Shown here: piece by piece, positions 1-54,841 of the stretch
How positions within the stretch are numbered: position 1 is the stretch's first letter
How the letters are laid out: each line of letters starts with the position of its first letter
Assembly: GCA_003614675.1 (NCBI GenBank)
Contig: ML002254.1
Location: 1 to 57,043 of the forward strand
Length of the DNA stretch: 57,043 nucleotides
Direction: 5' to 3'
From: Dimargaris cristalligena
Taxonomy: Eukaryota
Translations under genes and position numbers: made by a program
Notes under the pieces: model-generated
Database searches by the model: none
What the model saw: only the letters and a program-made list of their open reading frames with translations
What the model was told of the DNA's origin: nothing

Positions 1-3000
1 GGGATAGCGGAAAGGAATACATGGTTTCCAAAAACGATTGTAGCTGGTACTGTCCCTCCCCCCCAAATTACAAAAGCCGTACAAGGGTCGGCTGTTACTT
101 TGTAAATGTGAATAGTAGTGTGTGGGGCTGATGACTGGCAAAGTCCGGTTCTATGTCTTCCACTTGCGGGATTTGGCCGTGGGTTATATTGTGGGTTCCT
201 GCAGACAATGTGGCCAGTTTGGTTTAAAAGTCAATACAATGTACAGAACAACCGTTTATATGGGGTCTTCATAACACGTCATACTGAAATGCTCACCACG
301 CTACGAGACGTAATTTAGTCATAAACATCAATATGCGTGTCAAAGTGGGTATTGACCAACAGTGAGCCTACTGTTTACAATTCAAGTAGCATCGAGCAGC
401 AGCAACTACAGTAATGGCAAATGAATAGTCTTACTTTGATTCCTTAGCTTGGTGTCAATCGACTCCTCCCCCTAGATCTGCTGGAGTAATCGATGGAAAT
501 GGCAGCAGTTTTAACGCATCGATACTTCATTCTTGAGTAAATACGGTAAAGGGGCTTTACGTCTAGTCATGATCTTAACGTAAGTATAGATTAACATGGT
601 GCGAATAAGGTCTACGTAGATCTACAATCGAAAGGATTCGCAAGTAAAAATAGAAGGATCATCCGTTACTCCTTATCCCCTCTAACGTATCATACAGGCC
701 GCCAAGCGAGTCCACATATGTAGAGCCACAGGAAGAAGGTGAAATTTCATCACAATCCAAGTACGGAGCTGCCTTCGTGTACTCGGTTAAGATATCTATA
801 AAATAAAGCACATCGGTAGGCCAACCAACGTTTCAATACACATTTCTAGAAGGATTGCGGGTATATTAGCAGGCGTTATCACACCAGTTCAACCCAATTT
901 TAATATAATCAGACAACCATGAAGCAAACCAAACATGGCACCCAACTTATCCATCAAATTCCTGCTTTTGGGAAAACTTTAAGCGCATATTAGTAGGAAC
1001 CTGACTTTACGATTTGAGCAATATGGTGGGATTAACTTGGTGCACATGGGCGCATTCCTTATTTATAAACAGTGGATTTGTAAAATTACCAAAAAGGTGT
1101 CAGTATCATTGCCTCGAGTGGTGCCAGTTTTGGGGACGTATGAGGGTTTGCAGCGCCAGAAGTTTGGCTTAATCGACCAACACTGTACCCTACCATCACC
1201 CCTTTAACGATTAACCAGCTGTTCTTTCCCTAGCCACTTTATATAGTTAAGCTAAACCCCAAACGTGGAAGACCCCTCTAGTCGATTTTTCGGGGCCGAT
1301 TTAAGCGGTTATCATTACGCTGATTATCATGACTATGGAGTTGGATTTTAGTGAGTGCTTCCATGAAACATTTTGATCGGATTCCAGATACATATGACAA
1401 AGAAATGGGCGGTTGATAATTGCGGATTTTCATATGGATCAGCTATATATGGGATATATGTAAGTATCATGCCGATTTAAATGAAAAATGTATCTGGAAA
1501 GGCAAGTTCACTGTACAAATAATAACCAAAGTCCCCTTTTCTGCATAACAACGCGCGAAGATCATTTCTAATAGTTCAACTCAGCTAGCTCAGCGGGTGG
1601 ACTATTTTACGACCGGGGCCATTCAAGTGGAATGCCTTGTGAATAACAATTTGGCTCCAAATTTGACCATATGGAGACGGATCTTTCGGCGGTCCCTGAA
1701 TAGGGGACGCTTGTTTTCCCACCACTCAATATTGATTTGGGATTAGGCGCACGCTTAAAGATAAACTACGGTCTACCGTAGCGAAACAACATATGGGGTT
1801 ATGCGGGGGCTCAATCTCCGCTCATTGGGCGGGCAACCATTACCATATTTTAAATGGGTCCGTGGATTTGGCCAATTCAACTGGGCGGAAACACATGAGA
1901 CATACTCAACTAATCTGACTGGCTGCGGAGTCATAAACAGTTGAGCGGACTTGCTCATATCTACTTGATCTATAGTAATAGTAGAAAAAATCCTAAATGA
2001 TCGCCATCATGGGGGGTTTTAGTTATTGGGTGCGCACAGGATGTGCCGAATCCCGCCGCGTAAAATGAGCCATCTATTTGAAGTATCAGGCATTCCTCGT
2101 TAAAAATACCCCCCCTCCCCCGTCTATTTCCCCATATATGTATCTATGAAATTTCCGTACATTTAAGCTGAATGCTGCCCATATGGATCCAGAGTGCGAA
2201 CATCAACACCATATTTATCTAACTACGGCGTGCCCTTTGTCCAATAAACCGTAATCATATGAACAAGCGACATGCGATTGGAGAAAGCCACATAGTAACA
2301 CCAGGTTCTACTTAACTGGTTCATTAATTTTAAAAGTGGTATACCGACCATACAATATCAGTGCAGTCGGGGGGGGGGGGTGTAAGCTCCGGGTTTGACC
2401 CCCAACCAGCGCCACTATGAAACGTAAGACAAGCCCGAGTTAACATTTATGGTGGAGTAGTAGAAATTCTCGGGAAACTGTGGGTGGGAATAATAAAACG
2501 TTGGTTAAGAGTCTCGAATTCAAGCCTGAACACTTAATTGGTGGGCTGATCAGCCGAAAGTTAAGGCTGGCTCTATGGATTACCATACCACCTTTTCTTG
2601 GCGAAATAGAAGCGGCTGAAATCGACCTGGGGTGGTGAATGAGATATTCGGGAGGAAAAAAATAGGATTACTGACCCATACCTAAATTTGGGGGTATGTA
2701 CAGCGGGGAGTGTTGACCTCACTCTAGATGTGGGGGAGGAGATGGACATTCCGTGGCTTAGCGGAGTATACTACTGGGCAGTTTTAACCACATTATGCCT
2801 CGTCCATTTGGTGCTGGGTCTATACTGCCACAAGAATGGCAATTACAGTCCGTTCACACACATTACACTCGGATAGGCGAATCTGGATTTCGAAATGAAC
2901 ATGATATCATTGACAAACATGAACAAATAAAGCGTGGCCAGCAAAATTGGCATCAGAATGCATGGGTAGGAAATTTGTCTGGGGCATGGCTCTCTGGCGA

Positions 3001-4309
3001 ATGGAATATATGGATATACTGGGCTGTTTTCCACCATAGTAGGGCCGGTTTAAAGTCTACAGAAAATGATTATCCCTTCTTTCTATAGCAATAATGGGCA
3101 TTCTCGGGGCCGGTAGTAACTGGACACTCTATTCGTCCGCTATGGCAAGGTTTTGTAGCCTATGTGGACTGGCTGGTTGGCATTCATCTTGTCGCCTAAC
3201 GAATATGTCGGTATGCGCCAGTGCCAGCTATACCCCAGTTTAAGTTAGGGGTGATGCTCCCCATATAATCAGTACCAAAAATATAGGGTTAGAAAGTAGC
3301 CTGATAAGTAGTTGATAGTAGAGTGAGCGTGTCGGCCGTCACATTATCTGGTTAATATTTCTTGTATTGCACTTCCATAAACGGAATGCATATTTTTTGG
3401 GCCTAAATCCGACGGTGAAGCCCCCAAAAACCCACTTACGAGCAGAAGCAACTAGCCAACCGGTGTGATTTGCGCTGAAAATTGGTTGAACTGACAACAA
3501 GAGCTCAAGGCACAAAGTCTATGTATTGACATTTCGGTACACCACTTCTCTTTAATGGATTTTATTTGACCGCCCTGGTCGATTTAAACGATGATCCAGC
3601 CCAAAATCGACCGAAACTTGGTGAGGATTTTTCATACTTCGTGGCCATCCTGGGTGTAGGGCCAGGGTATGTAATGGGGTAGATCTCAGGTTACTCCTGT
3701 TCGATATCTCTAGGAACATGCACGTAGCAATGGCGCGAATGGAGAGAGAGGAGGGAGAAACTGTGGGCGATTGGTCTAGAGGGCGGGGGAGGAGGATTCG
3801 TGGACAAATAGAATGTATGTTTCGATGAGAGTTGTCTAATCCTTCTTTCCTACCCAATATACATGACTGTCTCTTTCTCAAGGGGGGGTCAGAGGAGGGC
3901 AATATGGATTTTCCGTAGAGAGTGGTCTATAGGGATGGAATGGTAGAGGATAGAGGAGAATGGCTGGCTAGAGAGTCTGCACGTAAATTTACCATTTGGG
4001 GAACCCTATATAAACTACACCCCGCGGTCACTATTGGTTTTATCCCTTCATGTGTATTAGATTCCCTCATGTCCTCCTCCTGCTCTACTCCCTGACACCC
4101 GTTTATTTTTAAATTTACGACCCTGGCTCACTTCATTCGTCACTACCTCTTAACTCGTGTCCTGCCAAATTACTGAATAATTATTGAATAATTATACTCC
4201 TTCATAACGCATCGTGACCTACTATTATCAGCCAACCTTACCGCCCCACTGCTATTGTTGGGTATAATAGACGTACCATCTCCCAGATAAACACATCCAC
4301 CTCCGTATA

Positions 4310-36320: not shown

Positions 36321-37563
36321 ATGCCGCCAAAGAAGAATCAGCCGGCCGCCAAAACCAATGACAAGAACAAAAAGAAGCAAATCGAGGACAAGACCTTTGG
36401 TCTCAAAAACAAGAATAAGTCCGCCAAGGTGAACCGCTATGTCCAACAGGTCGAACAGCAAGTTTTGACCGCGGGTAACAGTAAGAAGCTGAAGGAGGCC
36501 GAGGAACGGAAGAACCTGGTCTCGAATAAGAAGGAGGCGGAAGCTAGGAAGAAGGCCGAACTGGCCGAGCTCTTCAAGCCCGTTTTGGCCCAGCAGAAGG
36601 TGCCCTTCGGCGTGGACCCCAAGACAGTACTGTGCGCGCATTTTAAGCAGGGCACTTGCACGAAGGGCGACCGCTGTAAATTCTCGCATGATCTTAAAAT
36701 TGACCGGAAGGCGACTAAGATTGACATGTACACCGATGCTCGTGACGATAAAGAATCGGGTAAGTACAGTGGAGATTTATATATATATTGAATCGACTCC
36801 AGTGTGGACACTATGAATCCCGCAACGACTATTGCCCCCAGAACCGGGTATTTTCCACTAGCCTAATTTTTCACTGACGCCCAACCCATTTCCCCTACTA
36901 CTACAATTATATCTCCACCTACTAGATACCATGGACTCTTGGGATCAGTCTAAGCTGGAATCTGTGGTCAACTCTAAGCTTACCAAGAACTCCAACATAA
37001 CCGACATCGTCTGTAAACATTTCCTCCAGGCCATTGAGGACCAAAAGTACGGTTGGTTCTGGGAATGTCCCAACGGTGGACCCAAATGCCAATACCGTCA
37101 CGCGCTACCCAAAGGGTTCATCCTTAAGAGTAAGAAGGCGCAACTGGCGGAAGAGGAGGCCAAGAACCAGATTTCGTTGGAGGATTTCCTCGAAACCGAG
37201 CGGCATAACCTGGGTTCGAACCTCACGCCCGTGACGTTGGAGACGTTTACCCAGTGGAAGAAGGACCGTCGGGCCCGGAAGGAAGCCGCTGAAGAGGCCG
37301 AACATAAGGCGAAGGAGGCCGCTTTTAAGGCCGGGCGGGCTGTGAATATGAGCGGGCGGGACTTCTTTGACTTTAACCCGGAGTTGCTGCAAAATGGTGA
37401 GGATGAGGAAGGGGATGTATTCGAAATTAGCCAGTATCAGAACCGGGCCGATGAAGAAGGCCACCAACAACCCTCCACGGCCGACGCCGACCGGGAGGCG
37501 GACCCGACCAATGATGGAACTCGGTTGGCCGAACAACTCGAAAACACCAGTCTGACCGCCTAG
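36321..37563 (+). CDS. TMA46: Tma46/ZC3H15 (DFRP1) CCCH zinc-finger protein, two exons
   Basis: Exons 36321-36759 and 36926-37563. Motifs MPPKK, IEDKTFGLKNKNKSAKV, QKVPFGVDPKTVLCAHFKQGTCTKGDRCKFSHD, KYGWFWECPNGG and LTPVTLETFTQWK. Confidence 0.96.
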
Positions 37564-38547
37564 TTCGGATAGTATTCCCCTCCTTCCAGGAATGAGCTTC
37601 TCTTCCTTACCGGCTGCTTTTGGGAGGGTTCTTACTCTCTCTCTCAATCTCTCTCTCTTTATCATCTTTTTTCGTTAATTCTTCGTACGCGTCTTTTTGA
37701 ATATTATTATTATTATTTTTACATTGTCGTATGTGTTTCGGACCAAATTGGTTAAAAGTCAACTGTGCCAGTTGAGGGGGGGTATAGGTGGTTCATAATT
37801 TACTGTACCCCTCTCATCTAACTAATTTGGCCTTTTTTTTTTATTGGTAAGGGGAGCATACCATGCGTGTCGATGAAATAAACCCCTTCGTATACATATT
37901 TCCATGATTTCTGAAATACTTATGGGTAATACAGTCCTTCGTAAATTGTAATAGTTATACCTTATACATCATTCGCTCATGTTATACCGACTCGATAATT
38001 TAATATATATATATTCGTGGTCATTTTAATTCTTGTAATGATAAATGGCCGGACTGCTGAACGGAAGCCAAGAAAGAGAGAGAGAGTGTGTGTGTGAGAC
38101 TTGGTGGAACATCGCTCACATCCACTACCATATTTCTATCCTTCCCAATTGATATCTCCAACCAGTCCTAGGAGTAGGGGGCATACTACTAGTCTACGGG
38201 GCCGACCACTTTGAGCATTTATCCCCAAATATAAAAGGAGTGAACAAGTCCATTAGGTCTCAGCGAAAAGGATAACAAGATCCCAGGTCGAGGCCTCTTG
38301 GCGGACCAGTGACTGTAATTAAATCGACGCAAATTAAAAATTAAATAAAAATACACGGTACCAATTCAGCTTCTTGGGTCAAGCAGGAGGAGTATCGGAG
38401 GTATAGCAGACGCCAGTTGTATGGGAGGAGGAGGGGGGGGGGATCTCTCGACCATTGATGGCTGCGACTTGTTCGGGCATAAATAGAGGTCCTGATTGAA
38501 CTGCCGTTCAATTATTATTTATTTTATTTAACGGTCCCCTCATCGCC

Positions 38548-41500
38548 CAACACCCTCTTTATCCTAATTAAGCCCTGGGCAGTCCACATCCCCCTTTATA
38601 TATGTCCCGGGCGGTAGCTTGGCCTTCGACAAGAGGTATGTTCAATTTCGCCGATATATTAACCGAGTATCCCCCCAGGGTGGATTGTCGAGAGTTTAAA
38701 ATGGCTCGAAGAGAAAGGGTTCCTTCTGGGGGTAGTCGCTGACACTATTTCGGTTGAACTAGAATGTGACACTACCCTACCAACTGCCTCGGTTTCCCTA
38801 CGGGTTGTGGCAATCCAAGGTTTCATGTATTTATTATTAAGGTGGTTGACTCCCTGTATAGGCCCTACTCCTTGGCTAGTCGAGTATATATAGGCGGAGA
38901 AAAGTGCGATTAGGTGAGAAAGTGCGAGATAATTATAGAGAGTAGCCTTTATAGTTGTATATAATGGCAATGGTAGTGGTCGAATAAAATATAGATTGAC
39001 CTACTACATCCATGCTAATTTTAATCAGCTCATTTTGCGGCTGATGATCACCAAACCCGGGACTACGGTCCAGCTTTCCTACCTACCTACCTGCCTGCCT
39101 GCGAAAGTGCCGCGGTCGAGAAGAAGAGAAAGGAAAGTCGGGGCGATTGCGATAATGAGGTGAAACAGGCGGCAATGCTAATCGTTTACTTTAAAATGTG
39201 GTTGATTGGGTAGGATTTAGGTCATTTACCAGCTCGAAAATCAATAGCCCGGGGCCCCAAGACCAGCTGAACCTGTACGATGCCCCCCGCTAGCGGATGG
39301 GAGGCCCGCCCTATGGCAATCTATTGCGGACGCCATTAAGGTGAATACAAGGGAAATGAAGAGTGAGGAGGGTTGGGGCCCACCCAATGTTGCCTGACCC
39401 GTACAAAGTTGGGACCCTTCTTAGATTTCTATACAAAAACCTATTCGTTTACCTATCATACTATCCACCGCCCAGCGTCTAATTGCCAGTGCAGACCCTG
39501 TGTGAAAAATGCATAATTGAGGGTAAATAAGATGGTGTTGATGAATAAAAATGTGCTAGAGGTGCAAATAAAGTTGTTGCACTGTTTCTAAATCTAATGA
39601 ACGACCGGACATGGTAGACATATTTTAAAAAATAGGGAGAAGGGCTTCGTAGGCGAGACACAAAATGTAATAGTGCAATACGCAAGTTAAACGACCTACT
39701 ATAGTGAAGGTATGGCAGTCAAGGGCGATGATTTTTGGAAAAGGGGAATAGGGGGGTAAGCCCTATAGCCCCTCGCCAATCGGACTCAAGTACTAGTTAG
39801 TCGGGTTTCCCGAAATAAATATTTAGGGATCTTTGTATAGATCCGGGAACAGGCCGCCGTTGGTGGTTTTTGCACCCTTGAGTCGAACGACGAAGGGGGC
39901 GAGATTGCCGGCTGTAGGAGGGATAGGAGAGAGGGAGTTGAATTAAGGCAGGCCTATCCTATCCTATCCTTCCCTTATTTCCCTTTCCCTTTCTTCCCTC
40001 CTTGCTGAAGTACGCCTGGCGGGCCATTTCATTCAGTACACATACCCCCTCACCCAGACGACTGTTGCCGAATAATTCGGTATGTATATATATACCATGT
40101 CGCGGCCTTCTATAAACACTATCTTTCTAACATCGGTTGCTCTGAGCCTACTAATTCGCCCAATTCTCCACCCTCTCTTCTCCTATTCTATCCACCTATC
40201 TTTGGCCCCTCTTAATTTTCACTAGTTCTTTGGCCGTGTTTCCCTGTATAATTCGCGGACCATTGCTAGCATTACCCTCGCCGTTCTTTACTGAAACTTG
40301 CCCCCAATATTCTATAATAGCCGCCGTTTTTAAAAAGGATCTACATAAGTCACACTGACCTACCTAGATATCCGACATACTTCCCCTAAGACCACTCGTG
40401 TATAGACCCGAGCAAAGTTGCGCTCCCTTATCACTATCGAAATGTAGGTTATTATATAGACCTGCCTCATTACCATCATATGCACATTTTTATTACCCGC
40501 TTTGTCCATCTTGACTCCATTAGCTGGCTCAGGATACACCTACAATTACTGAAACAACGCCCAGTGAATATATTTAGTAACTAACTGCCACCGTTTATTA
40601 CGCCTTTCCTTTTCCAATCCCCAAAGTTAGCTGAAGTCCACCCTCACCGACTTCCACCTCGTAGTTGCTACTTACCCTCCTTACCTCTTAGTCCGGCAGT
40701 TATATAGCACTATGTCTGCCTTGAATGCCATACGGTTCAGCCTCTTCGGTCTCCTGGTGAGTCTGACGCTTCTAAACTCTACACATGCCCAGGCTGCCGC
40801 TCCGGAAGTGAATATTCCCGTTCCCCCCTACCAGCGCTGCGATAGCTTTAGTTACCAAATGACCAAGGAGGACATTGAGAAGGATTTCATAGTTGACTTG
40901 CCGGAGCAGGTCACCTTTGAAAACGGTGTCATGTACTGGGAATCCAATGAACAAAAATTCTGGCCCGGGTTGACTTATCGTGAGAATGACATTTGGTATG
41001 GCAAAGCCTCGATTACACTCAAGATGGCACCGAAATCCGGTATCGCCACCGCTTTCATTGTAAGTAATGTGTTTTAATTCCGTTTGTTGTTTCACCCCTT
41101 TTTATCCCGGAAATTTATTCATATTTACCCAAACATGGGAGTCTCCTCAATACGGATACTCTCATACCAGACCGAGAATCATTACATAGCACACACCGCA
41201 TTCTTGGCTGTTTTTCTTTGAATGGACTTCTGTACTAACCCTCGTTCTCAATATAAATTTATATACACCCTTTGCCAAAATGTAATTATCTCTACCCCAC
41301 TTTATCCAGCGTGGTAAGCAATCGGCCGATGAGCTTGACTTTGAATGGGTCGGTAAGGATACCGCCCGCGTCCAATCCACCTTTTTCGTCAACGGCCAAA
41401 ACACGGAGCGCAAAGAAGCCGTCTATGGGACAGCCGCCACCGATTTAGCCGCCGAATTCCACACGTACGCTATCAACTTCCAGCAAGATCATATTGAGTG

Positions 41501-42575
41501 GTCGGTGGACGGCGTGGTGACGGACAAGCGGACCCGGGCCGAGAACCCCACCTACTATCCGGAGAACGCCCGCGAATGGAAAATGAACCTGTGGAATGCC
41601 GGGGCCGGGCACGCCGCCTGGGCTGGCCCTACCGACTGGTATAGTGAACCTAAATCCGTGCGGGCGGCCATTAGTGCCATCAGTTTCGAGAGTGCCTGCG
41701 GCGCTGATGTCGTCAAGGGTGAACATAAGTTGCTCGGTGGCGCAGTAGCCGCCCCCGTCGTCGCTGCACCCGCCCCTGTTGTCACCGCCCCCGTCCCTGT
41801 CGTCCCCGCCCCCGCCGTCGCAGCCACTCCCGAACCCGTTCTGCCGGCTCCCCCCGCTGCCCAGCCCGAGGTTTAAGCCACGGTTCCTCAAGCTTAAGCC
41901 CTCCCCGCCCGCACCCACCCAGGCGCTGACCGCTGCTGGTGACGATTCTATAACTCGGATTACTAGGGAACCCAATACCAATTCCAATGTCTCGGATAAT
42001 GCGTGCTTATTGCGCGAGCCTCTCTAACCCTAGCTACTACACTTTATGAAACTACACCAATTTAGTTGTCGGACGGCAAATTCGCTCGTTAAACGCTTGG
42101 AGGGATGTGCCTTTAACACTTTTTCCTGTATAAAAATATAGTCACACGACTGGCCATTTAGGTTGATTTTCCCCGGCGGCATTACCAATCTGCGATATTT
42201 TATCGGGCTAGTCCGTGTTCTATAGTACTATTTTTTAACTGTATTATACATTTCCACCCCTAAAAAACGAGGCATATTGTTTAGCGATTTAATTTGTCCT
42301 CCCGGCATGGAATGTCGGTTTGGGGTACCCTTCTCAGTTTTATTTTTCATTCCTGGTTGAATGGTATTGTAGTATCTCTATTTATTTGGCATCATGTGTC
42401 TCAGCAAATGCATTTCGATTTAGTTTGGACATATCAATAAATCTCTTGTGATCGTAACTACGAAACAGTGGACGGTCAATCAAGCTTGATGCAGCGGAAG
42501 AGTGCACTGGTGAATAATATTATAATGGCACTAAAATACCAAGATGGTGGTCTCCTTAATATCTTACACTACATT
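38548..42575 (+). repeat. Segmental duplication, copy 1 (~4 kb, includes the GH16 gene and its flanks)
   Basis: Collinear with 44228-48155, e.g. CTAATTAAGCCCTGGGCAGTCCA at 38564 and 44244 and AAAATACCA near 42535 and 48117. End points are approximate. Confidence 0.93.
40712..41876 (+). CDS. Secreted glycoside hydrolase family 16 (Crh/licheninase-like), copy 1, ~304 aa
   Basis: Signal peptide; exons 40712-41059 and 41310-41876; IWYGKASITLK..KSGIATAFI, DELDFEWVG (ExDxE catalytic motif), EFHTYAI, NLWNAG..AWAGPTDW; Pro/Ala/Val tail. Probable 5'UTR intron from GTAGGT at 40444. Confidence 0.92.
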
Positions 42576-42599
42576 TGCATATTATCAAGTTGTCTCATA

Positions 42600-43550
42600 G
42601 CAGCGGTAATATCCGGTGGATTTTCGAAAGTTTTTACTACGGGCTTTACTTACCCGTTAGTTTTGTAAAGCTGTTTGGCTTTCTTGCAGGGGATGGCCAG
42701 CAGTGGGTGTTGGACAGTCCAGTAAATATTCCCGATTTTAAATAAAGCAAAATGTAAACTAGGCCCAGCTGATAACTAAGTATATTTATCAAGGAAAGGC
42801 CTTGTTGTGATGAGGTCCATAAGTAGAGCCTTAATCTACCATCATACCAAGAATATGTACCAAGTGGTAAACACACACCTAAATACATACATATATATAG
42901 GCATAAAGCAATATTGAAATGGTGAAAATTGGTGCCACGTCAAGTTCTAAGATATCTCTTTGGAAGACTGGCCCAGCAATTTCAGTGGTATATGAACAAA
43001 AATGAACAATATAATAGTTAAACAATGCTTTAGTGTGGTCTATTGGTATTATTCCTGGCGGAAATCTTAGGTAGTCCAGGGATATATAATAGAGCTATAT
43101 AATTATTAATAACAAATATAATAATTTCAATCAGAAGGGTTTAACCCTAGAGGACTAAATTGGTAATATTAGCCAATATTGGTTGCATGAGCCTGTGGAA
43201 TGAATAAAATGTAGTAGGGGCTGACCAAAAGCTCTGTGATAATATATACACTTATGAGGTACCAGTAAGCATAGCCTGAGTAGATCCAAAGGTGAGAACC
43301 AAGATAGGACCACCATTGGGGTTGTCAAAGAGTACCATTATTGATTAGACATGGGCTAAAATGGTACAGTCTGAAACTACCTAAGAGTATTGGGCTAAGT
43401 AACAAATAAGTAGGCAATACTGCATATATATGATGGCCCAGTTGGTTAGTAAGGGTAATCAGGGTAGAGAAGGGGGTAAGGTAGTAGATATATATATATA
43501 TTGGGCATAAGATGGGGTTATTATAGGTGTAGATAATAACACAGTAATAG
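42600..43550. mobile_element. AT-rich, CpG-depleted degenerate repeat relic (family not recognised)
   Basis: Almost no CpG and an excess of TA/TG/CA compared with neighbouring DNA; no ORF; interrupts the duplicated segments. Confidence 0.45.
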
Positions 43551-43554
43551 TAAC

Positions 43555-44140
43555 TATTGGACCATCTAATCTACCTTAATCTGGTCAGCTTAGACATCCA
43601 ACCCTATTAGGCTGTATAGTACCATATTAACCTTCCCATAGTTACCCCCAGGACTATGAGATTATCCCTTATTACATAACCCTTCCCCTTCTAGACTCTA
43701 CCTCTTTACACTACTCACTCCAGTGCTGATCCAAAGACTCTTCCAATTACCTTTAGAGACTTCTGGATACCAATAACTATCCAGTCAGCCTATTTATATA
43801 TCCTTAGTCTTAGTAGTATCCTTCCCTTGGGACCTCCCTCTAGAGTTCTCCCTGTGTATATATAACTAGGCCCCATTGGGACCACTTAGATTCCTCAGCT
43901 TATTCTTACTTCTTTTTTAGTTAATAAACCCTATATACACTTACTCCCCTTTATACTAACTAGTAAGCATACCCACTATATGCCCCTTACATATCCCTAC
44001 TATATCCTTTATTAGTTAGTGCTATATCCTATACCTGATACTAGTAGCCCACTTAGCTGAGTCTAAGCCTTACTTACTATTAAAAACCTATCCTTGGGAC
44101 TCTTGATGGACTAAGAGTGTTTAACCCAGGTACCATATAG
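43555..44140 (-). mobile_element. Uninterrupted copy of an older LTR-like repeat
   Basis: Its reverse complement aligns with 48596-48759 joined to 53727-54150 (shared AGAGGGAGGTCCCAAGGGAAG, AGGAATCTAA and AAGAGTCCC.AGGATAGG). Ends are approximate. Confidence 0.8.
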
Positions 44141-44227
44141 GAAGACAGCAGTTAAAGGATGATAGGCACCACCAGGTAATTAGTTTTACTAAATAGTATA
44201 GAAGACCCATCAGGACATATTTTTTAA

Positions 44228-47200
44228 CAACACCCTTTTCATACTAATTAAGCCCTGGGCAGTCCAGATCCCCCTTTATATATGTCCCAGGCAATAGCTT
44301 GGCCTTTGACAAGAGGCATATTCAATTTTGCTAATATATTAACCGAGTATCCCCCCAGGGTGGATTGTCAGGAGATTAAAATGGCTCAAAGAGAAAGGGT
44401 TCCTTCTGGGGGTAGTCACTGACACTATTTCGGTTGAACTAGAATGTGACACTACCCTACCAACTGCCTCGGTCTCCCTACGGGTTGTGACAATCCAAGG
44501 TTTCATGTATTTAATAGTAGGATGGCTGGCCCCTGTATAGGCCCTAGTTCTTGGCTAGTCAAGTATATATAGGCAGAGAAAAGTGCGATTAGGGGAGAGA
44601 GTGCCAGATAAATATAGAGAGTAGCCTTTATAGTTGCATATAATGGCAATGGAAGCGGTCGAATAAAATATAGATTGACCTACTACATCCACGCCAATTT
44701 TAATCTACTCATTTTGCAGCTGATGATCACCAAACCCGGGACTACGGTCCGGCTTTCCTACCTACCCACCTGCCTGCCTGCGCAAGTGCCGCGGTCGAGA
44801 AGAAGAGAAAGGAAAGTCGGGGTGATTGCGATAATGAGGTGAAACAGACGGCAGTGCTAATTGTTTACTTTAAAATGTGGTTGATTGGGTAGGATTTAGG
44901 TCATTTACCGGCTCGAAAATCAATAATCCGGGGCCCCAGACCAGCTGGTAGTACGATTCCCCCCGCTAGCGGATGAAAGGGCCGGCCGATGGCAATCGAT
45001 TTGCGGACGCCATTTAGGCGAATACAGGGGGATGGGGGTAGTGGGGGTGGGGGTGGGGGTGGGGGTTGAAGCCCAGCCAACGCTCCCTGACCCGTACTAG
45101 ACTGGGCCCCTTCTCTGATTTCTATAAAAAAATCTATTCATTTACCTATCATGCTACCTATCGCCCAGCATCCAATTGCCAGTGCAGGCCCTGTGTGAAA
45201 AATACATAATTGAGGGTAAGCAAGATGGCGTTGATTAATAAAAGAGTGCTAGAGGGGCAGATAAAGCTGTTGCAATGTCTCTAAATCTAATGAACGACCC
45301 GACGTAGTATATATATTTTTGAAATTAGGGAGATGGGTTTTGTAGGCGAGAAACGAAACGTAATAGTGCAATACGCAAGTTAAACGACCCACTATGGTGA
45401 GGGTGTGACCAATTCAAGGACAAGGATTTTTGGGAAAGAGAAAGGGGGAGGAATGAGGGATGGGGGAGGCAAAGGTCTTCCACACAAGGGGGGGGTAAGC
45501 CTTATAGCCCTCGCCAATCGGACTCAAATATCAGTTATACGGGGTTCCTAAAATAAATATTTAGGAATCCTTGTATAGATCTGAGAACAGGCCGCCGTTG
45601 GTGGTTTTGCACCCTTTAATCGGACGACGAAGGGCGCTAATTCGCCAGCTGTAAGAGGTAAAGGGGAGGGTAGGGGTTGAATTAAGGCCGACCTACCCTT
45701 CCCTTATTACCCTTCCCCTTTCCCTTTCTTCCCCCCCCCCCTGCTCAAGCACGCCTGTCGGACCATTTCATTCGGCGCACATACCCCCTCGCCAAGGTGA
45801 CCGTTGTCGAATACTTCGGTATGTATATATATACCATGCCGCGGCCTTCGCCCTATAAAAGTCATCTTTTTAATATTGGTTGCTCTGAGCCTAATAATTC
45901 GCCTAATTCCCCACTCAGTCCTCCTATTCTATCCATCTTTTTTTGGCTGTATTTCTCTGTTTATTTCACGGACTATCGCTCGCATTACCTTTGCTATTCT
46001 TTACTGAGACTTGCCCCCAATATTCTATAATAGCCGCCGTTTTTAAAAAGGATCTACATAAATCACACTGACCTACCTAGATATCCGACATACTTCCCCT
46101 AAGACCACTCGTGTATAGACCCGAGCAAACTTGCGTTCTCATATCACTGTCGAAATGTAGGTTATTATATAGACCCGCCCTTTACCATAATATACACATC
46201 TACATTACCCGCTTGGTATATCTTGACTCTACTAGTTAACTCAAAGCGAACATGCAAATACGGAAACAATGCCTAGGGGTTGTTATTAGTAACTAACCAC
46301 CACCATTTATCACGTCGTTCCTTTTCCAATCCCCATAGTTAGCTGAAGTCCACCCTCACCGACTTCCACCTCGTTGTTGCTACTTACCCTCCTTTCCTCT
46401 TAGTCCGACAGTTATATAGCACTATGTCTGCTTTGAATGTCATACGGTTCAGCCTCTTCGGTCTCCTGGTGAGCCTAATGCTCCTGAACTCTACGCATGC
46501 TCAGGCTGCCGCTCCGGAAGTGAATATTCCCGTTCCCCCCTACCAGCGCTGCGATAGTTTCAGTTACCAAATGACCAAGGAGGACATTGAGAAGGATTTC
46601 ATAATTGACTTGCCGGAGCAGGTCACCTTTGAAAACGGTGTCATGTACTGGGAGGTAAACGAGCAGAAGTACTGGCCTGGTTTGACTTATCGAGAGAATG
46701 ACATTTGGTATGGCAAAGCCTCGATTACACTCAAGATGGCACCGAAATCCGGTATCGCCACCGCTTTCATTGTAAGTAATGTGTTTTAATTCCGTTTGTT
46801 GTTTCACCCCTTTTTATCCCGGAAATTTATTCATATTTACCCAAACATGGGAGTCTCCTCAATACGGATACTCTCATACCAGACCGAGAATCATTACATA
46901 GCACACACCGCATTCTTGGCTGTTTTTCTTTGAATGGACTTCTGTACTAACCCTCGTTCTCAATATAAATTTATATACACCCTTTGCCAAAATGTAATTA
47001 TCTCTACCCCACTTTATCCAGCGTGGTAAGCAATCGGCTGACGAGCTTGACTTTGAGTGGGTGGGCCAGGATACCACCACTGTCCAATCCACTTTTTTCG
47101 TAAACGGCAAAAATACGGAGCGTCAATCGGCCACATTTGCGAAATCTTCCACCGATTTAGCCGCCGAATTTCACACGTACGCAATCGACTTCCAGCAAGA

Positions 47201-48155
47201 TAAGATTGAGTGGCTTATGGACGGTGTGAGTGTAGACAGTCGGTCGCGGGCCGCTAAACCGACGTACTACCCGGAGAACGCGCGCGAGTGGAAGATGAAC
47301 CTGTGGAACGCTGGGGCCGGTCACGCGGATTGGGCTGGCCCCACCGACTGGAACAGTGCGCCTAAATCCGCTCGGGCGGCCATTAGTGCCATCAGTTTCG
47401 AGAGCTACTGCGGTGCGGACGTCGTCAAGGGTGAGCATAAGCTGTTTGGAGGGGCAGCGACCTCCCCCACCGCCTTTATAACCGCTCCCGCCGCCGCCCC
47501 CGCCCCCACGGCCACTCACGAACCGGTCCTACCGGCTCCCCCTGCTACCCAATCCGATACCAATGCCGAGGACTCCGGCAAAAAGTGTTAATTGGGCGGG
47601 TCTCTCTAACCGTAGCTAGTATACTTCATGAAACTACACTAATTTAGTTGTCGGACGGCAATTTCGCTCGTTTGATGCTAGAAGGGATGTGCCTTTCAAA
47701 CTTTTTCTTGTATATATATATAGGCACAAGGCAGATAATTTAGGTTAATTGTCCCCGGTGGAAATGCCAACCTATAGCTCTGTGCCGAATTGTTCTGTGC
47801 TCTATTATATAAAAATTCATCTGTATTGTACAATTACGTCCCAATGTATCGGGGTAGATTGTTTAGCGACTTAACGTATCCCCCGGGCATTAAGTGTTGG
47901 TTTAAGGCATCCTTCTCAGTTTTATTTCACATTCCTGGTTGAATGACATTACAGTACCTTTATTTATTCGGCACCATGTGTCTCAAAATAAAATTTCAAC
48001 TTAGTTTGGACATATCAATAAATTCCTCATGATGATTGTCAATACGTAAAGTTGATTGATAATTTATCTCAATTCAGCAGAAGGGTGCTCTAGTCAATAA
48101 TGTTTTAATGGTATTAAAATACCAGTTGGTGGTCCTTAACATTGCCCACTACATA
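44228..48155 (+). repeat. Segmental duplication, copy 2
   Basis: Direct repeat of 38548-42575, offset about 5.6-5.7 kb. Confidence 0.93.
46424..47591 (+). CDS. Secreted glycoside hydrolase family 16, copy 2, ~305 aa
   Basis: Exons 46424-46771 and 47022-47591; same motifs as copy 1 including DELDFEWVG; different tail ending SGKKC. Confidence 0.92.
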
Positions 48156-48360
48156 TATGGATGAAGTTCAGCTTAGCTGTATAAGAATTTAACTGATATG
48201 TGTATGGGAAAATCAGTGGGATGTTTATTTTCAACCAGTAGTACTTGCCTCATCAAATGGATTTTTCATTATATAGCCTGGATGATCTACTCCCATATGT
48301 GTTGCCTGGTAAATGGGGTATATCATAAATTGGGAGAGGGGTATAGCCAAAACTATACAT

Positions 48361-48584
48361 TGTTAAAGGATATATTCCTATGTATTCTTTATTCTATCCT
48401 ATTTTTACCCAATTAAATTAGTTTATTCTGCTATCATGAAATCATTCATGTTAGCCACTTATATTTCACCCTATCAAAAATTACAGTTCAATAAAACTAA
48501 CCACCTAGAGGTACCTATCATTCTCTAGCTGCTTTCTTCCCTTTCTTCCAGTTTTATTTCCTTTAAGTCCTTAGTATTCTAATA
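48361..48584 (+). mobile_element. Solo LTR of the adjacent Copia family, in opposite orientation
   Basis: Reverse complement of the LTRs at 48760 and 53504. Starts TGTT and is flanked by a perfect 5-bp TSD TACAT (48356-48360 and 48585-48589). Confidence 0.92.
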
Positions 48585-48595
48585 TACATATGGGC

Positions 48596-48759
48596 TATTG
48601 CCCAGGTTTGCCACTTTTAGTCTGCTAAGAGTCCCGAGGATAGGCTTCTAATGGTAGGTGGGGCTTAGGCTCAACTAAGCAGGCTACTAACATCAGGTAT
48701 GGGGCATGGAACTAACCAATAAAGGCTTAGGTGATCAGTTATGCAAGGGACATGCAACA
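48596..48759 (+). mobile_element. Left part of the older LTR-like repeat, interrupted by the Copia insertion
   Basis: Aligns to the reverse complement of ~43980-44140. Confidence 0.75.
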
Positions 48760-48982
48760 TGTTGGAATACTAAGGATGTAAAGGAAACAAAGCTGGAAGT
48801 AAGGGAAGAAAGCAGCTAGAGAATGATAGATACCTCTAGGTGGTTAGTTTTATTGAACTGTAATTTTTGATAGGGTGAAATATAAGTAGCTAATATAAAT
48901 GATCTCATGATAGCAGAATATACTAACATAATTGGATAAAATAGGATAGGATAAGGAATACATAGGAATATATTCTTCAATA
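48760..48982 (-). repeat. 3' LTR of the Copia element
   Basis: TGTTGGAATACTAAGG...TTCTTCAATA, a direct repeat of 53504-53726. Polypurine tract AAAGGGGAG (minus strand, 48983-48991) abuts it. Confidence 0.95.
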
Positions 48983-49029
48983 CTCCCCTTTATTACAAGT
49001 AGGAATAGTAATAACATCCTGTTTGTTGG

Positions 49030-52000
49030 ATGTAAAGAGATGGATATTCAAAGGTTTTGTTAAAAAATCAGCCTTTTGTTTATTACTAGGCACATGTTTT
49101 AAGGTGATAATTCCTTTGTCAATGTAATCTTGAACCACATGGAATTAAATATCAATATACTTAAAGCAACTGTAATTCACAGGGTTTTTTTCAATAAGGA
49201 TACAAGTCATATTATCACTGTAAATAGTGATAGATATAGAAAAGGAATTGAGAAATTGGAGGACTTGTTTAACCCAAATTGCCTCCTTTGTAGCTTCAGA
49301 TAGAGCAATATACTCAGCTTCAGTAGTAGAAGTAGCAACTAGGGTTTGCTTTTTGGATGCCCAGGATACAGAGCCACCATCCAGAAGAAATAGGTAGCCA
49401 CCTATAGATTTTCTGTCAAAGGAGTCACTGGCAAAATCACTATTACAAAAATCAATTTAACCCAAATTTTTACCATCAAAGGTAATCCCATGGATTAGGG
49501 TACCTTTAAGGTAGTGTAGAATTCTTTTAGCAGCAAGCCAGTGGGTAGTTGTGGGTTTGGGATTAAAGGAACTTAACTTGTGAATAGCATAGGTAATATC
49601 AGGTCTAGTGCAATTTGATAAATACAACAGGGACCTAATTAAGTTGGCATAAGGTTCATTGGTGAGCTCACAAGTAGTGGTGGCAGGTGAGGGTTTGAAG
49701 CCAGGCTCCATGGGAGTGCTTGTTGGGATGCTCTGTTCCATGCAGTAGTCCTCCAGTAAGTCAGAAATATATTTCTGCTGGTGGATAATAGCTGGCTATC
49801 AGTTGACTTAATTTGTGAGACTTGAATTCCAAGTAAGAAATTCAATTCCCCTTAATCAGTTATTGAGAATCTAGTATTGAGTTGTTGTTTAACCCAATCC
49901 ATACCAGAAAGCTCAGATGAGACAATAAGCATGTCATTAATATACACAATAAGGTATGTATGTAGGTTTCCTTAAACCTTGGCATAAATACCATAATTAA
50001 GTTTACACTTTAAAATGTCACAGGATAGCAGAAACTCATCAAGAGTTTGATTCCAGAGACTTGGAGTTTGCTTGAGTCCATATAGGCTATGGTTAAGCTT
50101 GCAGACAGAGTGTTTGGGGATCTGGAATCCCTCAGGAGGTTCAATAAAAACTTCCTTATCAATTTTACCATTCAAAAACACAGTTTTAACATCCATTTGA
50201 TGAATAAAAAGGTGATACTTAGCAATAAGTGCCAAGAGAATCCTGATGCTAGAGTAGTGAACTACAGGTGCAAAGGTTTCATTGTAGTTAATTCCTTTAC
50301 ACTGATGGAATCCCTTAACAACTAGTTGAGCCTTGTGATACTCAATAGTACCATCAGGGTGTAACTTAGTAGTAAGAACCCAATGACAGGGTAAAACTTT
50401 GGAGGTTTTTGGGCGAGGTACTAAGTCCCAGACTTCATTTTCAGCCATGGACTTGAGTTCAAGGTTAATGGCCAACTGCCATTCCTTACGGAACTGATCC
50501 TTCATGGCCAGGGAGTAATATTGTGGACCATCCATGGCCAGAAAAGCTAAATTGGAAGGAGGGTTGGAGTTGGGAGAGGGAGGAATGCTGCCAATATATT
50601 TAGACAGTCGAGGAGTTGTCAATTGGAGTTGTTTTGACCTTTTAAAATGATTCCTTTTTAAGGGAATAGCCTGGGGGCCGGGGACAGGTGCTCTGTAGTT
50701 GAATTGGACAGGTGTAGGGACCTGGTGGGAGATATTAGATTTCTTGAGTTCAGATTCAAGTTCCCAGTCATTCAGATCAAGATTTGGGTCTACAGGGATG
50801 CCACTTAAAGTGTGTGGGCTTAATTCCATGCTAAGATCACTTGTATTAATGACCTGGGGTATGGTAGATACCACTGAAAAATTTTCAGAACCATATGTAG
50901 ATTGGTTAGAAATATCTATTATCACAGGTACAGTTACTACTGCAGGAGGTGCATAAGATATATGGTCTGCATTAATAGATAAATTTAAGCCTGGATCCTC
51001 ATCTGGGAGGTAAAAGTAGTGACTGGAGGTATTCTGGGCTTGATTCCGGATGGTTTTTGATGGGGATGGCTGTTCTGAAGTCCAGGAAGCCAGGGAATCA
51101 GGCAAAAAATGCATGTCTTGACTGACAATGACCTTGTTTGACTGGGGGTCAAAAAACTTGTAGTTTTTCAGGTTGGCAGTCAGCCCCACGTAGAGGAGCT
51201 TCTTTGAGGTTAGTTGTAACTTTTGGGAGTAAAAATTGTTGGCTTTGATGATTGCCTTAGACCCTAACTGGTGAAATCATGTAAGATCTGGCTGTTGGCC
51301 ATACCAGCGTAAATGGGGAGTGTCATTACCAATTTTAGGACTAGAAATCCTATTCTAAATTATGGTAGTAGCCAGAAGTACTCCCCCCAAAGGGATTTGG
51401 GTAAACCCTTTTCATTAAGCATGCATTTCACAGTAGAGTGAACAGTTTAATTGAACCTTTCAGCAATGCCATTTTGTTGGGGGGAGTAAGGTGCACTAGT
51501 GGAATGAGCAATTCCATACTCCTTGAGGATAGTAGTGAATTGATGGAAGATGTACTTACCACCATTATCAAAATGAATTTCTTTAGGAAACTTACCAAAC
51601 TGATTGTTCACATACTTTAGATACCAGTCCAGTGCCTGGGGTACATCAGATTTATGTTTAATCAAACTGACATAAGCCATTCTTAAAAACTGGTTAATAA
51701 AAGAGACAAAATAGTATTGTCCTTTCATTGTTCTGATAGGCATAGGACCAGCTATGTCAGTGTGAATTACCTCCAGTATGGTGAACTCAGGGTCCAGCCT
51801 ACCAGAGAAGGGTAGGCAAGTTGCCTTATTAATTAAACAGGTTTCACAAGGTTGGATATCCTTAGAAGTAGTTAAATCAACACCTGGTAGTAGGCCAGAC
51901 TTGGTTGCCTGAATCAGTAATAGATAATTAACATGGCCTAAGTTAATGTGGGCCTGTTGAATTGAATTTTCCTTTGAAATCAGGGCTTTGGGGGTTAGAT

Positions 52001-53223
52001 CTTATCTAGGATACCACATTTTGATGGTATATGTATGTGTGCATGAACCTGCATAAAAGGACATCCCATTAGGGAGAGTAATCTCACAAGTATCAGAAGT
52101 AAAATTAATACTTGCACCTTTCTTTGTTACCTCTTTGACCAAAAAAAGGTTAAAACCAAGCTCAGGGCAGAAACCAACATCAAAGAGAGTGATAATTACA
52201 GGTTTTCCAGTGGAGCTGGTAAGGGTAACCTAGATATTGCCTTGACCTAGGATAGGTACTGTACTGTTGTTGGCAATGGTGATGGAGGTCTTAGAGGGTT
52301 TGAATTCTTCAAAGAGTTCCAAGTAAGGGCAGAAGTGGCCACTTGCACCAGAATTGACATACCAAGTCTCAGTTGGATTTTCTTTTTGGGCAGAGGCCTT
52401 GAGGGCTAGGCCAGATTGTTGGGGTTCTTATTCACAGTGGGGAGGTGCAGGGACCTTGGGTTTACTCAATTACACAGCTAACTTTGCAGTTTGGGCCTTA
52501 CATTCATTGTTGGAATGGGAATTTGAATTGTGGTAGTCACAGTACTTACCAGAGGGTTTCCCCTTTTTCCCTTTGACCTTTTTAGGGGTAGCAGGTTTGT
52601 TGAAACTGGCTACAAGGGTAGAGGAACTAGACATAAGGGGGTTTGTTCTTGGTGTAAATAGTCTCTGTAAAGACTATCCCTAATATTAGAAAACTTTAGA
52701 TCAGAAATTTTGGTGGAGTTAAAAATTGCAATTTGAGTTGTAAATTGGTCCTGCCTCATGGAGTTAATAAGGATCAGGGAGCAGATTATCTCCTTGCCTA
52801 GTTTGAGGCTCTCAGTTTTACCGTAGAGTTGCCACACCTTATTGGCCATCTAGATTAGGGTCTCATCATCTTGATGTAGGTTGAAAAGTTATTGGTAGAG
52901 CTCCAGGGCATGTGAGGCCTTATTCAAGTTGAAAGCACTAGCCAGGGTACTCCATATTGCATTTTCAGATGGGCAGGACCTGATAGTTGGAAGCATATTA
53001 GCAGTGACAGAGGCTTGGATCTTGAGTTTGGCCAGGTGGTCTTTCTTATACCAGAACCTAGTGGAATCAAACTTGACCTCTTATCTTCAGTAGTGATAAT
53101 GAGGGTCAAAAATGGGGCTTCAACAACTTCCCAGAGGTCATCTAAGTTAAGGTGATTTTGCATTTGGATACTCCAGTCATCATAGTTTGTACCAGTAAAT
53201 GTAGGAAGAGGGGGGAGATTCAT
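49030..53223 (-). pseudogene. Disrupted gag-pol polyprotein
   Basis: Fragments in several frames (ORFs 52924-53268, 51447-51743, 49972-51189, 49457-49741). Catalytic motifs are altered: DSG>NSG and YVDD>YIND. Confidence 0.93.
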
Positions 53224-53488
53224 TGTAAAGGACTGGCCAATCATTAGATGGATAGATAAAAATACCAAAAACTAGATGGATGGATATAGGAAAAGACTTA
53301 AAAGTATCTATAGATAGATGAAGGATACAGATGGAGTCAATGGATAAAAATAAAGTAAAAGTTTGTACTGGCTGCAAAGGCACAAATATGCAATTGATCA
53401 GGACTAATGCACTATTCTGCAGGGATATGTAAGCGGTCAATGCACACATGTACAATTATTTCAAAGATAAAAGGATAAACATGCATAA

Positions 53489-53503
53489 GCAGGGCTCATA
53501 ACC
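53489..53503 (-). promoter_or_regulatory. Primer binding site complementary to the anticodon stem-loop of initiator tRNA-Met
   Basis: Minus strand GGTTATGAGCCCTGC directly after the 5' LTR end (CCAACA). The plus strand reads GCAGGGCTCATAACC, the fungal tRNAi-Met anticodon arm. Confidence 0.9.
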
Positions 53504-53726
53504 TGTTGGAATACTAAGGATGTAAAGGAAATAAAACTGGAAGTAAGGGAAGAAAGTAGCTAGAGGACAGTAGGTACCTCTAGGTGGTTAGTTTTATTGA
53601 ACTGTAATTTTTGATAGGGTAAAATATAAGTGGCTAACATAAAGGATCTTATGATAGCAGAAAAAACTAACAGAATTGGATAAAATAGGATAGGATAAAG
53701 AATATGTTCCTACATATTCTTCAATA
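53504..53726 (-). repeat. 5' LTR of the Copia element
   Basis: Direct repeat of 48760-48982; differences are mostly transitions. Confidence 0.95.
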
Positions 53727-54150
53727 TAGTGGGCATACTTACAGGTCAGTATGGGGGGGTGAGTGTATATAGTGTTTTTTGGGGTAAACTAGGGGGGTAA
53801 GAGTAAAGCTAAGGAATCTAACCAGTCCTAAGGGGGCCCAGTTATATATATACAGAGATGGCTCCAGAGGGAGGTCCCAAGGGAAGACTATGGGTAACTA
53901 AGGTATATAGTAAAACTAGGCCAGTCAGATGGCTACTAGTATCTGGAAGACTCTCATGGTAACTGGAAGGGTCTTTAGATCAGCAGGTTAAGTGATTACT
54001 ATGAAGAGCTGGAGTCCAGAAGGGAAAGGGTTATATGATATAGGGTGATCCCATAGTACCAGGGGCGACCATGGAAAGTTTAATATGATGCTATAAGTCT
54101 TAATAAGGGTGGGTAGCAGGGTGTTTGGATTAAGATGGATTAGAAGGGCT
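53727..54150 (+). mobile_element. Right part of the older LTR-like repeat, interrupted by the Copia insertion
   Basis: Aligns to the reverse complement of ~43555-43980. Confidence 0.8.
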
Positions 54151-54841
54151 GATATGGGTGCTTTAGAGCAACATATTTAATAGTGATATGCATGTAACAG
54201 CATGGGTAAATAGTACTAGAATATGAGCTATTGGTTTGAAGAGGAACCATAATGTGGTATGTCTGTGTAATATTTAATTAGAGGTGTTTAACCAAGGTAG
54301 GTGGCACCTGTCACTGGCATGGTCCCAAGTGATACTGAGTTGGTTAAAATTATACTTCACCATGAACTATGGTTCTGGTGATAATCCTGGAGCCCTGGTC
54401 TATTTAGTGGATGTATGACCTGCAGAATGTATACAAGTAAATACCTCGAGCCTAATTAGCCCCGTATGAATATATTAGCATTCCTAATACGTAAAATATA
54501 CATTTTTTCAACCCATGCTATGCCTACAAACCCACCACTGGCAGAAAAGAGAGTCAATCAAAATCCACATAATTCAAAAAATTATATGCACGTAATAGTA
54601 ACTATCCATTGCATTGTAATGAGGGAGTAAAACAGATTAAAACATAAATAAATTGTAAATGTGAGACACAAAGATCTGATATAGGAAAAGTTCAACGGCA
54701 AGGATGGCAAATTCTGATATTTATTACTTGAGGCTGGCATCAGTTCATTACATATAGTATCTCGAGGAGTTGACCAAGTGGCGGCAGTGAATAGGGATCC
54801 AAAAGGTGAATGATGGAATATCGATGTCACCATGTTTTTTG

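Follow-up and report, generated by a model that had tools for sequence, protein, structure and literature searches.

CpG loss beside transposon blocks reaches into single-copy DNA of a duplicated GH16 locus in Dimargaris cristalligena

Contig ML002254.1 of the Zoopagomycota mycoparasite Dimargaris cristalligena, analyzed here over its full 57,043 bp (the window), carries a 3.9-kb segmental duplication with a GH16 gene in each copy. Copy 2 is wedged between two high-copy repeat blocks, and copy 1, which is the same host DNA located away from repeats, serves as its unmutated control. We found that copy 2 has lost nearly all CpG dinucleotides from the approximately 200 bp at each edge that faces a repeat. 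The loss is CpG-specific, directional and localized; it is seen at all four repeat edges in the window and is absent from the body of the duplication. The best reading of these data, and in our judgment a probable one, is that CpG methylation aimed at the transposons reached approximately 150-500 bp past the repeat edges and was followed by deamination of 5-methylcytosine (5mC). The segments compared are as follows (o/e, observed/expected ratio of CpG).

38548-42574, plus strand: copy 1, ~2.1 kb of upstream DNA and GH16 paralog 1, delimited with blastn and MAFFT
44228-48154, plus strand: copy 2, ~2.1 kb of upstream DNA and GH16 paralog 2, between the two high-copy repeat blocks
38548-38740: control segment in copy 1, 9 CpGs, o/e 0.74, background-like
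44228-44420: eroded 5' edge of copy 2, 1 CpG left, o/e 0.10, single-copy depth
42416-42615: copy-1 equivalent of the 3' edge, 7 CpGs, o/e 0.97
47996-48195: eroded 3' edge of copy 2, next to repeat block 2, 1 CpG, o/e 0.19
43583-44130: repeat block 1, made up of modules X (43555-43981) and Y (43980-44126), high-copy by depth and homologous to modules of block 2
48196-54154: repeat block 2, 5959 bp, 11 CpGs, o/e 0.05, high-copy, holds a copia element

The two copies are 85% identical over 3844 ungapped MAFFT columns (76-89% in the individual BLAST pieces), and the CpG o/e ratio is normal in copy 1 (0.89) and in the interior of copy 2 (44428-47995; 0.88). Across the whole alignment we counted 246 CpG sites, made up of 121 shared sites, 49 transition losses in copy 2, 32 transition losses in copy 1, and 44 other changes. 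Nine of these sites fall in columns 0-199, at the 5' edge. At eight of the nine, copy 1 has CpG where copy 2 reads CA, TG or TA; one site is common to both copies (38664/44344), and none is found in copy 2 only. An earlier reading of this DNA from its letters alone (the sequence-only reading) had listed eight CpG changes here and had stated that copy 2 gained no CpG in the span; the changes are all present where it had placed them, and the absence of gains was borne out. When the edge (eight lost, one kept) was compared with the rest of the alignment (41 lost, 120 kept), the difference was significant by Fisher's test (p = 2.1e-4). Symmetric loss in both copies, which would speak against a directional process, was not seen at the edge, where the ratio of copy-2 to copy-1 losses was 8:0 as compared with 41:32 elsewhere (p = 0.019).

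The edge was also distinguished by the type of position that changed. Transitions were found at 9 of its 18 CpG positions and at 6 of its 83 other C/G positions (p = 6.6e-5). The corresponding numbers for columns 200-3900 were 82/454 and 243/1371 (p = 0.89), and since the CpG rate in the body equals that of other C/G positions, the non-repeat DNA is not CpG-hypermutable. Divergence outside CpG was 0.05 at the edge, and the three 200-column bins that follow gave 0.07, 0.04 and 0.078, which indicates that the eroded edge is not simply older and that no conversion tract begins at the point where the erosion stops. The changes at the edge fall on both strands (six G>A and three C>T), and substitutions across the whole duplication are symmetric (C>T 104 and T>C 102; G>A 88 and A>G 81). 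The loss at 44369-44371, one of the eight, is a swap of neighboring bases (AG/GA) and neither a single transition nor a simple deamination.

Chance clustering could give such a pattern, as could gene conversion that restored CpGs beyond column 200 or selection that kept the CpGs of copy 1, but we regard all of these as very improbable. Conversion between the copies does occur, and the edge was chosen post hoc with 9 sites, both of which speak for an explanation of this kind. The evidence for conversion is a 345-bp identical run between the GH16 paralogs (40982-41326, plus strand, equal to 46694-47038) that extends from the last part of exon 1 through the intron into exon 2; it is probably a recent gene-conversion tract, and contigs from both studies used here break at its ends, 46694 and 47038. 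On the other side, a scan permutation that allowed for position and direction by considering any nine consecutive CpG sites matched the observed clustering in only 44 of 20,000 shuffles. Non-CpG divergence does not drop after column 200, the same asymmetry is found at the other repeat-facing end of copy 2, and the overshoot occurs at all four repeat edges.

The direction of change was read from mutational context. Among the 12 differences at the edge with C or G in copy 1 and T or A in copy 2, 9 lie in CpG. Had copy 1 gained these by T>C or A>G mutation, the expected CpG share would be 22.5% (25 of 111 T/A positions; p = 1.7e-4). Consistent with loss from copy 2, the copy 1 segment is background-like in CpG content (o/e 0.74) and the copy 2 segment is repeat-like (0.10).

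With respect to the shape of the effect, the sequence-only reading had proposed that it falls with distance from the repeat and that the losses thin out over the next ~500 bp. The first proposal held. A step model with its boundary at column 190-200 (8/9 sites lost inside, 41/161 outside) gave a likelihood ratio (LR) of 15.2, and an exponential model with a length of ~200 bp (roughly 80-500 bp) over a 25% background gave an LR of 11.5 (p = 0.003). The second did not, as columns 200-700 are symmetric, with five losses in copy 2, four in copy 1, 15 shared sites and one transversion. A step near column 190-200 fits at least as well as exponential decay. The erosion stops at a point ~190 bp inside copy 2. 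Measured from the repeat side, this point is ~220 bp past the last transposon-derived base and ~290 bp past the end of the high-copy repeat, and the homology between the copies continues across it unbroken. Gene conversion was ruled out as the cause of the sharp edge, given that non-CpG divergence is unchanged there. The second GH16 gene starts at 46424 (ATG), and the eroded 190 bp are 2.0-2.2 kb away from it on the upstream side. The idea that the process reshaped the upstream region of one paralog is thus correct in its literal sense only; the GH16 reading frames are open in both copies.

To set the limits of the repeats, depth was summed over contigs from two studies (four public runs). The sum lies in the thousands to tens of thousands across 43606-44208 and again from position 48028 onward, and at 13-150 elsewhere. 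A single-copy contig stops at 43582, the sequence of other genomic copies departs from that of the window beyond 44126-44131, and 48196 is the first position of the right block. These data agree with the repeat end near 44140 that had been read from the sequence. The stretch 44209-44409 is at single-copy depth in runs of two studies, and one contig spans 44097-45741 without differences. The elements within and beside the two blocks are listed below (LTR, long terminal repeat).

42656-43582: spacer left of block 1, 3 CpGs in 927 bp, o/e 0.10, single-copy depth, no paralog control
44140-44198, plus strand: old copia LTR fragment, ~73-78% identical to LTR positions ~48-106
48366-48585: solo LTR, inverted, in block 2
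48605-48753: module Y, reverse-complemented, in block 2
48756-53726, minus strand: degenerate full-length Ty1/copia element with gag DUF4219, integrase rve and RVT_2
48759-48982 and 53503-53726: the two copia LTRs, 224 bp, 89% identical to each other
53724-54154: module X, reverse-complemented, in block 2
54155-54446: flank right of block 2, CpG-free, 293 bp until the first CpG, no paralog control

The modules of block 1 are homologous to the reverse complement of 53724-54154 (X) and 48605-48753 (Y), and inverted copies of one X-Y-LTR module bracket copy 2. The full-length copia element splits the right-hand module exactly at the X/Y junction. We also considered whether copy 2 was captured by an LTR transposon. 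This idea was unsupported, as 44199-44227 and 48155-48365, inside the flanking modules, show no homology. A Pfam scan of the six open reading frames (ORFs) of the spacer and relic DNA at 42441-43865 gave no match under the cut-off; an AlcCBM31 match among them (E = 0.066) was dismissed as noise.

This arrangement bears on an explanation that involves no spreading, in which the eroded segments would be old transposon-derived DNA, or DNA once carried by an element, and their counterparts in copy 1 would have escaped as short, isolated pieces. The inverted modules do suggest that the position of copy 2 has a transposon-linked origin, the old LTR fragment places transposon-derived sequence 29 bp from copy 2, and the spacer at 42656-43582 is CpG-poor, AT-rich and relic-like. 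However, neither 44228-44420 nor 38548-38740 has similarity to any repeat of the window at word size 7, and the edge at 44209-44409 is single-copy in both studies. Moreover, the copy 1 segment has CpGs at background level (o/e 0.74), and the homology of the two copies continues through column 190-200. Given these observations, we consider this explanation improbable.

CpG loss recurs at every repeat border in the contig. The CpG o/e ratio is 0 in block 1 and 0.05 in block 2, versus 0.86 in 38 kb of background, and CpG-free DNA overshoots the four repeat edges by 524, 214, 151 and 293 bp. In 44 kb of background, by comparison, CpG-free gaps are at most 195 bp long, and the probability of a distance of at least 151 bp is 0.003, or 0.006 when the background is limited to low-GC surroundings. 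A paralog control exists for two of the four borders. At the second of these, the 3' edge of copy 2, the homologous part (47996-48154) has one CpG in copy 2 versus five in copy 1, which points the same way as the 5' edge. The result is in line with the claim of the sequence-only reading that a repeat-associated, CpG-directed mutational process removed CpGs from adjoining single-copy DNA, a claim that the loss of 8 of 9 sites at single-copy depth upholds.

The mutation spectrum inside the repeats was examined in four sets of repeat pairs (48759-48982/53503-53726, 48366-48585, 43555-43981/53724-54154, and 43980-44198/48482-48753). TG/CA discordant dinucleotides are the commonest class of double transition between repeat copies, accounting for 2/3 in the LTR pair, 7/16 in the X pair, 3/10 in the Y plus LTR pair, and 0/0 for the LTR versus the inverted LTR. 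Such discordance corresponds to an ancestral CpG that decayed on opposite strands, which shows that the loss within the repeats happened in place. In the copia block the CpA/TpG o/e ratio is 1.11 compared to 0.96 in the background and TpA is not raised (0.96), as expected of decay of the 5mC type and not of classical repeat-induced point mutation (RIP).

CpG is the dominant target in the repeats, but CpA is raised too. C/T differences between repeat pairs were found at 54 of 101 positions before A, 22 of 99 before C and 21 of 137 before T, which makes them roughly threefold more frequent before A than before C or T. The CpA rate far exceeds that of the duplication body (58/340; Fisher p = 3.6e-12). 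For CpC and CpT combined, the repeats (43/236) and the duplication (138/808) do not differ (p = 0.70), and the equal rate indicates that they are of similar neutral age. Majority-rule polarization of three LTR copies gave 10 C>T changes at CpA versus 3 T>C changes at TpA, although as many as 3 of the C>T changes may really be TG/CA doubles that were counted wrongly. At the eroded edge, CpA differences amount to 3 of 19, and three or fewer would be expected with a probability of 8e-4 under the repeat rate. An apparent CpA>TpA bias is confined to the repeats, on top of the CpG loss, and does not reach into the flank. Non-CpG methylation inside the repeats would also explain the CpA excess.

The CpA excess (54/101) and the polarization of the three LTRs speak in favor of a different process, namely an active, RIP-like deamination in the sexual or premeiotic phase that would be aimed at repeats with a preference for CpG and then CpA and would leak a few hundred bases into the flanks. 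Block 1 fits such a process, with a TpA o/e ratio of 1.61, a CpA/TpG ratio of 0.63, and a composite RIP index (0.46) that no other part of the window exceeds. In the available part of an entomophthoralean study, RIP-index signals are described outside Dikarya, in another Zoopagomycota fungus, with caveats stated by its authors (PMC11105155). We nonetheless think a RIP-like process unlikely. The duplication body shows neither a C>T direction bias nor an excess at CpG or CpA despite a neutral divergence equal to that of the repeat pairs, and under RIP a linked, once-identical 3.9-kb repeat should be mutated in both copies, which argues against a homology-triggered mechanism. Furthermore, the flank effect is CpG-only, the edge was hit on both strands, and a kingdom-wide k-mer screen is reported, in the text available from it, to have detected RIP-like signatures only in ascomycetes (PMC12543289). 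The ascomycete RIP frame that the sequence-only reading had invoked is therefore not supported for this locus, which belongs to a Zoopagomycota host and contains a duplication with symmetric substitutions.

Several points weigh against methylation spreading as the cause. The key sample comprises only the nine CpG sites picked after inspection, and the paired 3' edge is not significant by itself (5 vs 1, p = 0.22) and is poorly aligned at ~76% identity. The two flanks that lack a control could be old transposon relics too diverged to be detected by depth or BLAST. Polarity depends on mutational context and not on an outgroup; the nearest named relatives in the protein search are 64-67% identical in a conserved protein, and non-coding DNA would therefore not align. 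The raised CpA differences in the repeats are unexplained by methylation of CpG only, and 5mC is described as scarce in Zoopagomycota overall in the accessible portion of PMC11258239. Finally, one of the eight losses is polymorphic between runs, as run X2 from the other study keeps the copy 1 state, and hence the CpG, at 44370-44371. Because the CpG is still present in X2, that loss is recent; no further X2 difference was found in 44228-44420 among those listed.

X2 is a second isolate or haplotype. Over 1183 bp of the single-copy spacer, 13 positions and one gap separate it from the window (~1.1%). D. cristalligena may be non-haploid according to the part of PMC10386755 at hand. Among the 13 differences between X2 and the window at 42574-43373, two give a CpG in X2 only and none the reverse, numbers that are too few to use.

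Methylation followed by deamination, the reading we prefer, would operate as follows. The high-copy transposon blocks would sit in a CpG-methylated, probably heterochromatic, domain whose outer limits lie in single-copy DNA, ~150-500 bp, or one to a few nucleosomes, from the repeat ends. Deamination of methylated CpGs to TpG or CpA would, with time, have emptied the repeats and both repeat-facing edges of copy 2 of CpG; the copy 1 segments, which are not beside a repeat, would have kept theirs. Such a process explains why the loss is CpG-specific, why the edge was hit on both strands, why every border shows overshoot and why the interior is untouched, and also why the two-copy duplication was never a target. 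On the basis of this pattern we infer that 5mC was the intermediate. A DNMT1- or DNMT5-type enzyme together with a heterochromatin mark would be expected to set the domain, and the overshoot presumably reflects spreading on the scale of nucleosomes.

A more elaborate possibility is a two-layer, repeat-directed defense that would combine near-total CpG erasure overshooting by 150-500 bp with CpA>TpA hypermutation confined to the repeats, neither of them triggered by a two-copy duplication. We regard this as doubtful at present. If it were true, the target would be recognized by copy number, small RNA or heterochromatin rather than by pairwise homology, and a RIP-like outcome would be reached through another recognition rule in a phylum in which the kingdom-wide screen saw no such signature.

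The genes named in the text are listed here.

36862-37563: exon of TMA46 (translation machinery-associated protein 46), 100% identical to a named D. cristalligena protein
ATG 40712, second exon ORF 41286-41876, plus strand: GH16 paralog 1, PF00722
ATG 46424, second exon ORF 46998-47591, plus strand: GH16 paralog 2, PF00722

The PF00722 E-values are 1.6e-21 for paralog 1 and 3.7e-22 for paralog 2. The next-best protein matches of the TMA46 exon are from other Dimargaritales, at 64-67% identity. The other long ORFs with a Pfam match are ordinary host genes that encode a P450, an HD-domain protein, Yae1 and a Cdc14-binding protein, and the Pfam scans of window ORFs gave no match to a methyltransferase family. 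The first 800 bp of the duplication (38548-39350 and 44228-45030) are its best-conserved part outside the conversion tract, with 89-94% identity per 200 columns versus 67-84% over the next 1000 columns. They are located 1.3-2.1 kb upstream of the GH16 start and contain no conserved ORF. A search of Rfam over 37500-48500 (E <= 0.1) and a search for transfer RNA genes over the whole window returned nothing. Copy 2 also has a G-rich, (GGGGT)n-like run (45026-45075), with no counterpart at the matching place in copy 1.

DNA methylation is known from plants and mammals to spread a few hundred bases beyond transposons, where it can affect nearby genes. That spreading was read from methylomes; in Dimargaris the evidence consists of CpG loss over evolutionary time, of the sort to be expected where methylation has spread. 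RIP likewise leaks into flanking single-copy DNA in Neurospora and Leptosphaeria. The Dimargaris pattern resembles RIP leakage in that a repeat-directed C>T process reaches hundreds of bases past the repeat and CpA>TpA appears raised within the repeats. Unlike RIP, its effect on the flank is CpG-only and the linked 3.9-kb duplication was left untouched.

Among fungi, a close likeness is found in species with a CpG signature of transposon decay. In Tuber, Microbotryum and rusts this decay has been ascribed to methylation of the Dnmt1/Masc2 type and subsequent deamination, as stated in the portion of PMC4352252 available to us. As in Tuber melanosporum, Microbotryum and the rust fungi, the repeats of Dimargaris were selectively stripped of CpG by transitions while genes were spared, TpG and CpA products accumulate, and the mutations arose in place after insertion. 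The differences are that Dimargaris is a Zoopagomycota mycoparasite outside Dikarya, that its depletion is near-total (o/e 0-0.05), and that its flank overshoot was measured against a paralog, with the pattern being known here from DNA sequence alone. Two other fungi have 5mC almost exclusively in repeats according to the text of PMC11258239 accessible to us: Linderina pennispora (Kickxellomycotina), which belongs to the same subphylum, and Phycomyces, in which a preference for CG is described. This repeat-restricted state would produce the Dimargaris pattern. The Linderina and Phycomyces data are direct methylomes, as opposed to the mutational footprint in Dimargaris, and no report of flank erosion in either fungus was found in that portion of PMC11258239. 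For Dimargaris itself, no methylome study was found by title or abstract among the matches listed, and Zoopagomycota are not treated in any passage of a 2026 review.

The locus adds a clean instance, from an under-studied phylum, to a kind of process that is already known; it is no new type of system. It constitutes a natural experiment, in which the same 3.9 kb is present once away from repeats and once wedged between them, such that the mutational cost of a transposon neighborhood can be read directly. The repeat-facing edges have paid this cost, and the interior has lost no CpGs in excess. The comparison gives a length scale for the reach of the repeat-directed CpG process and provides evidence, at the level of sequence, for strong repeat-directed CpG modification, present or past, in a Zoopagomycota mycoparasite. 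A simple gene duplication is spared by the process, a point of relevance to the question of how fungi of this sort can go on evolving by duplication.

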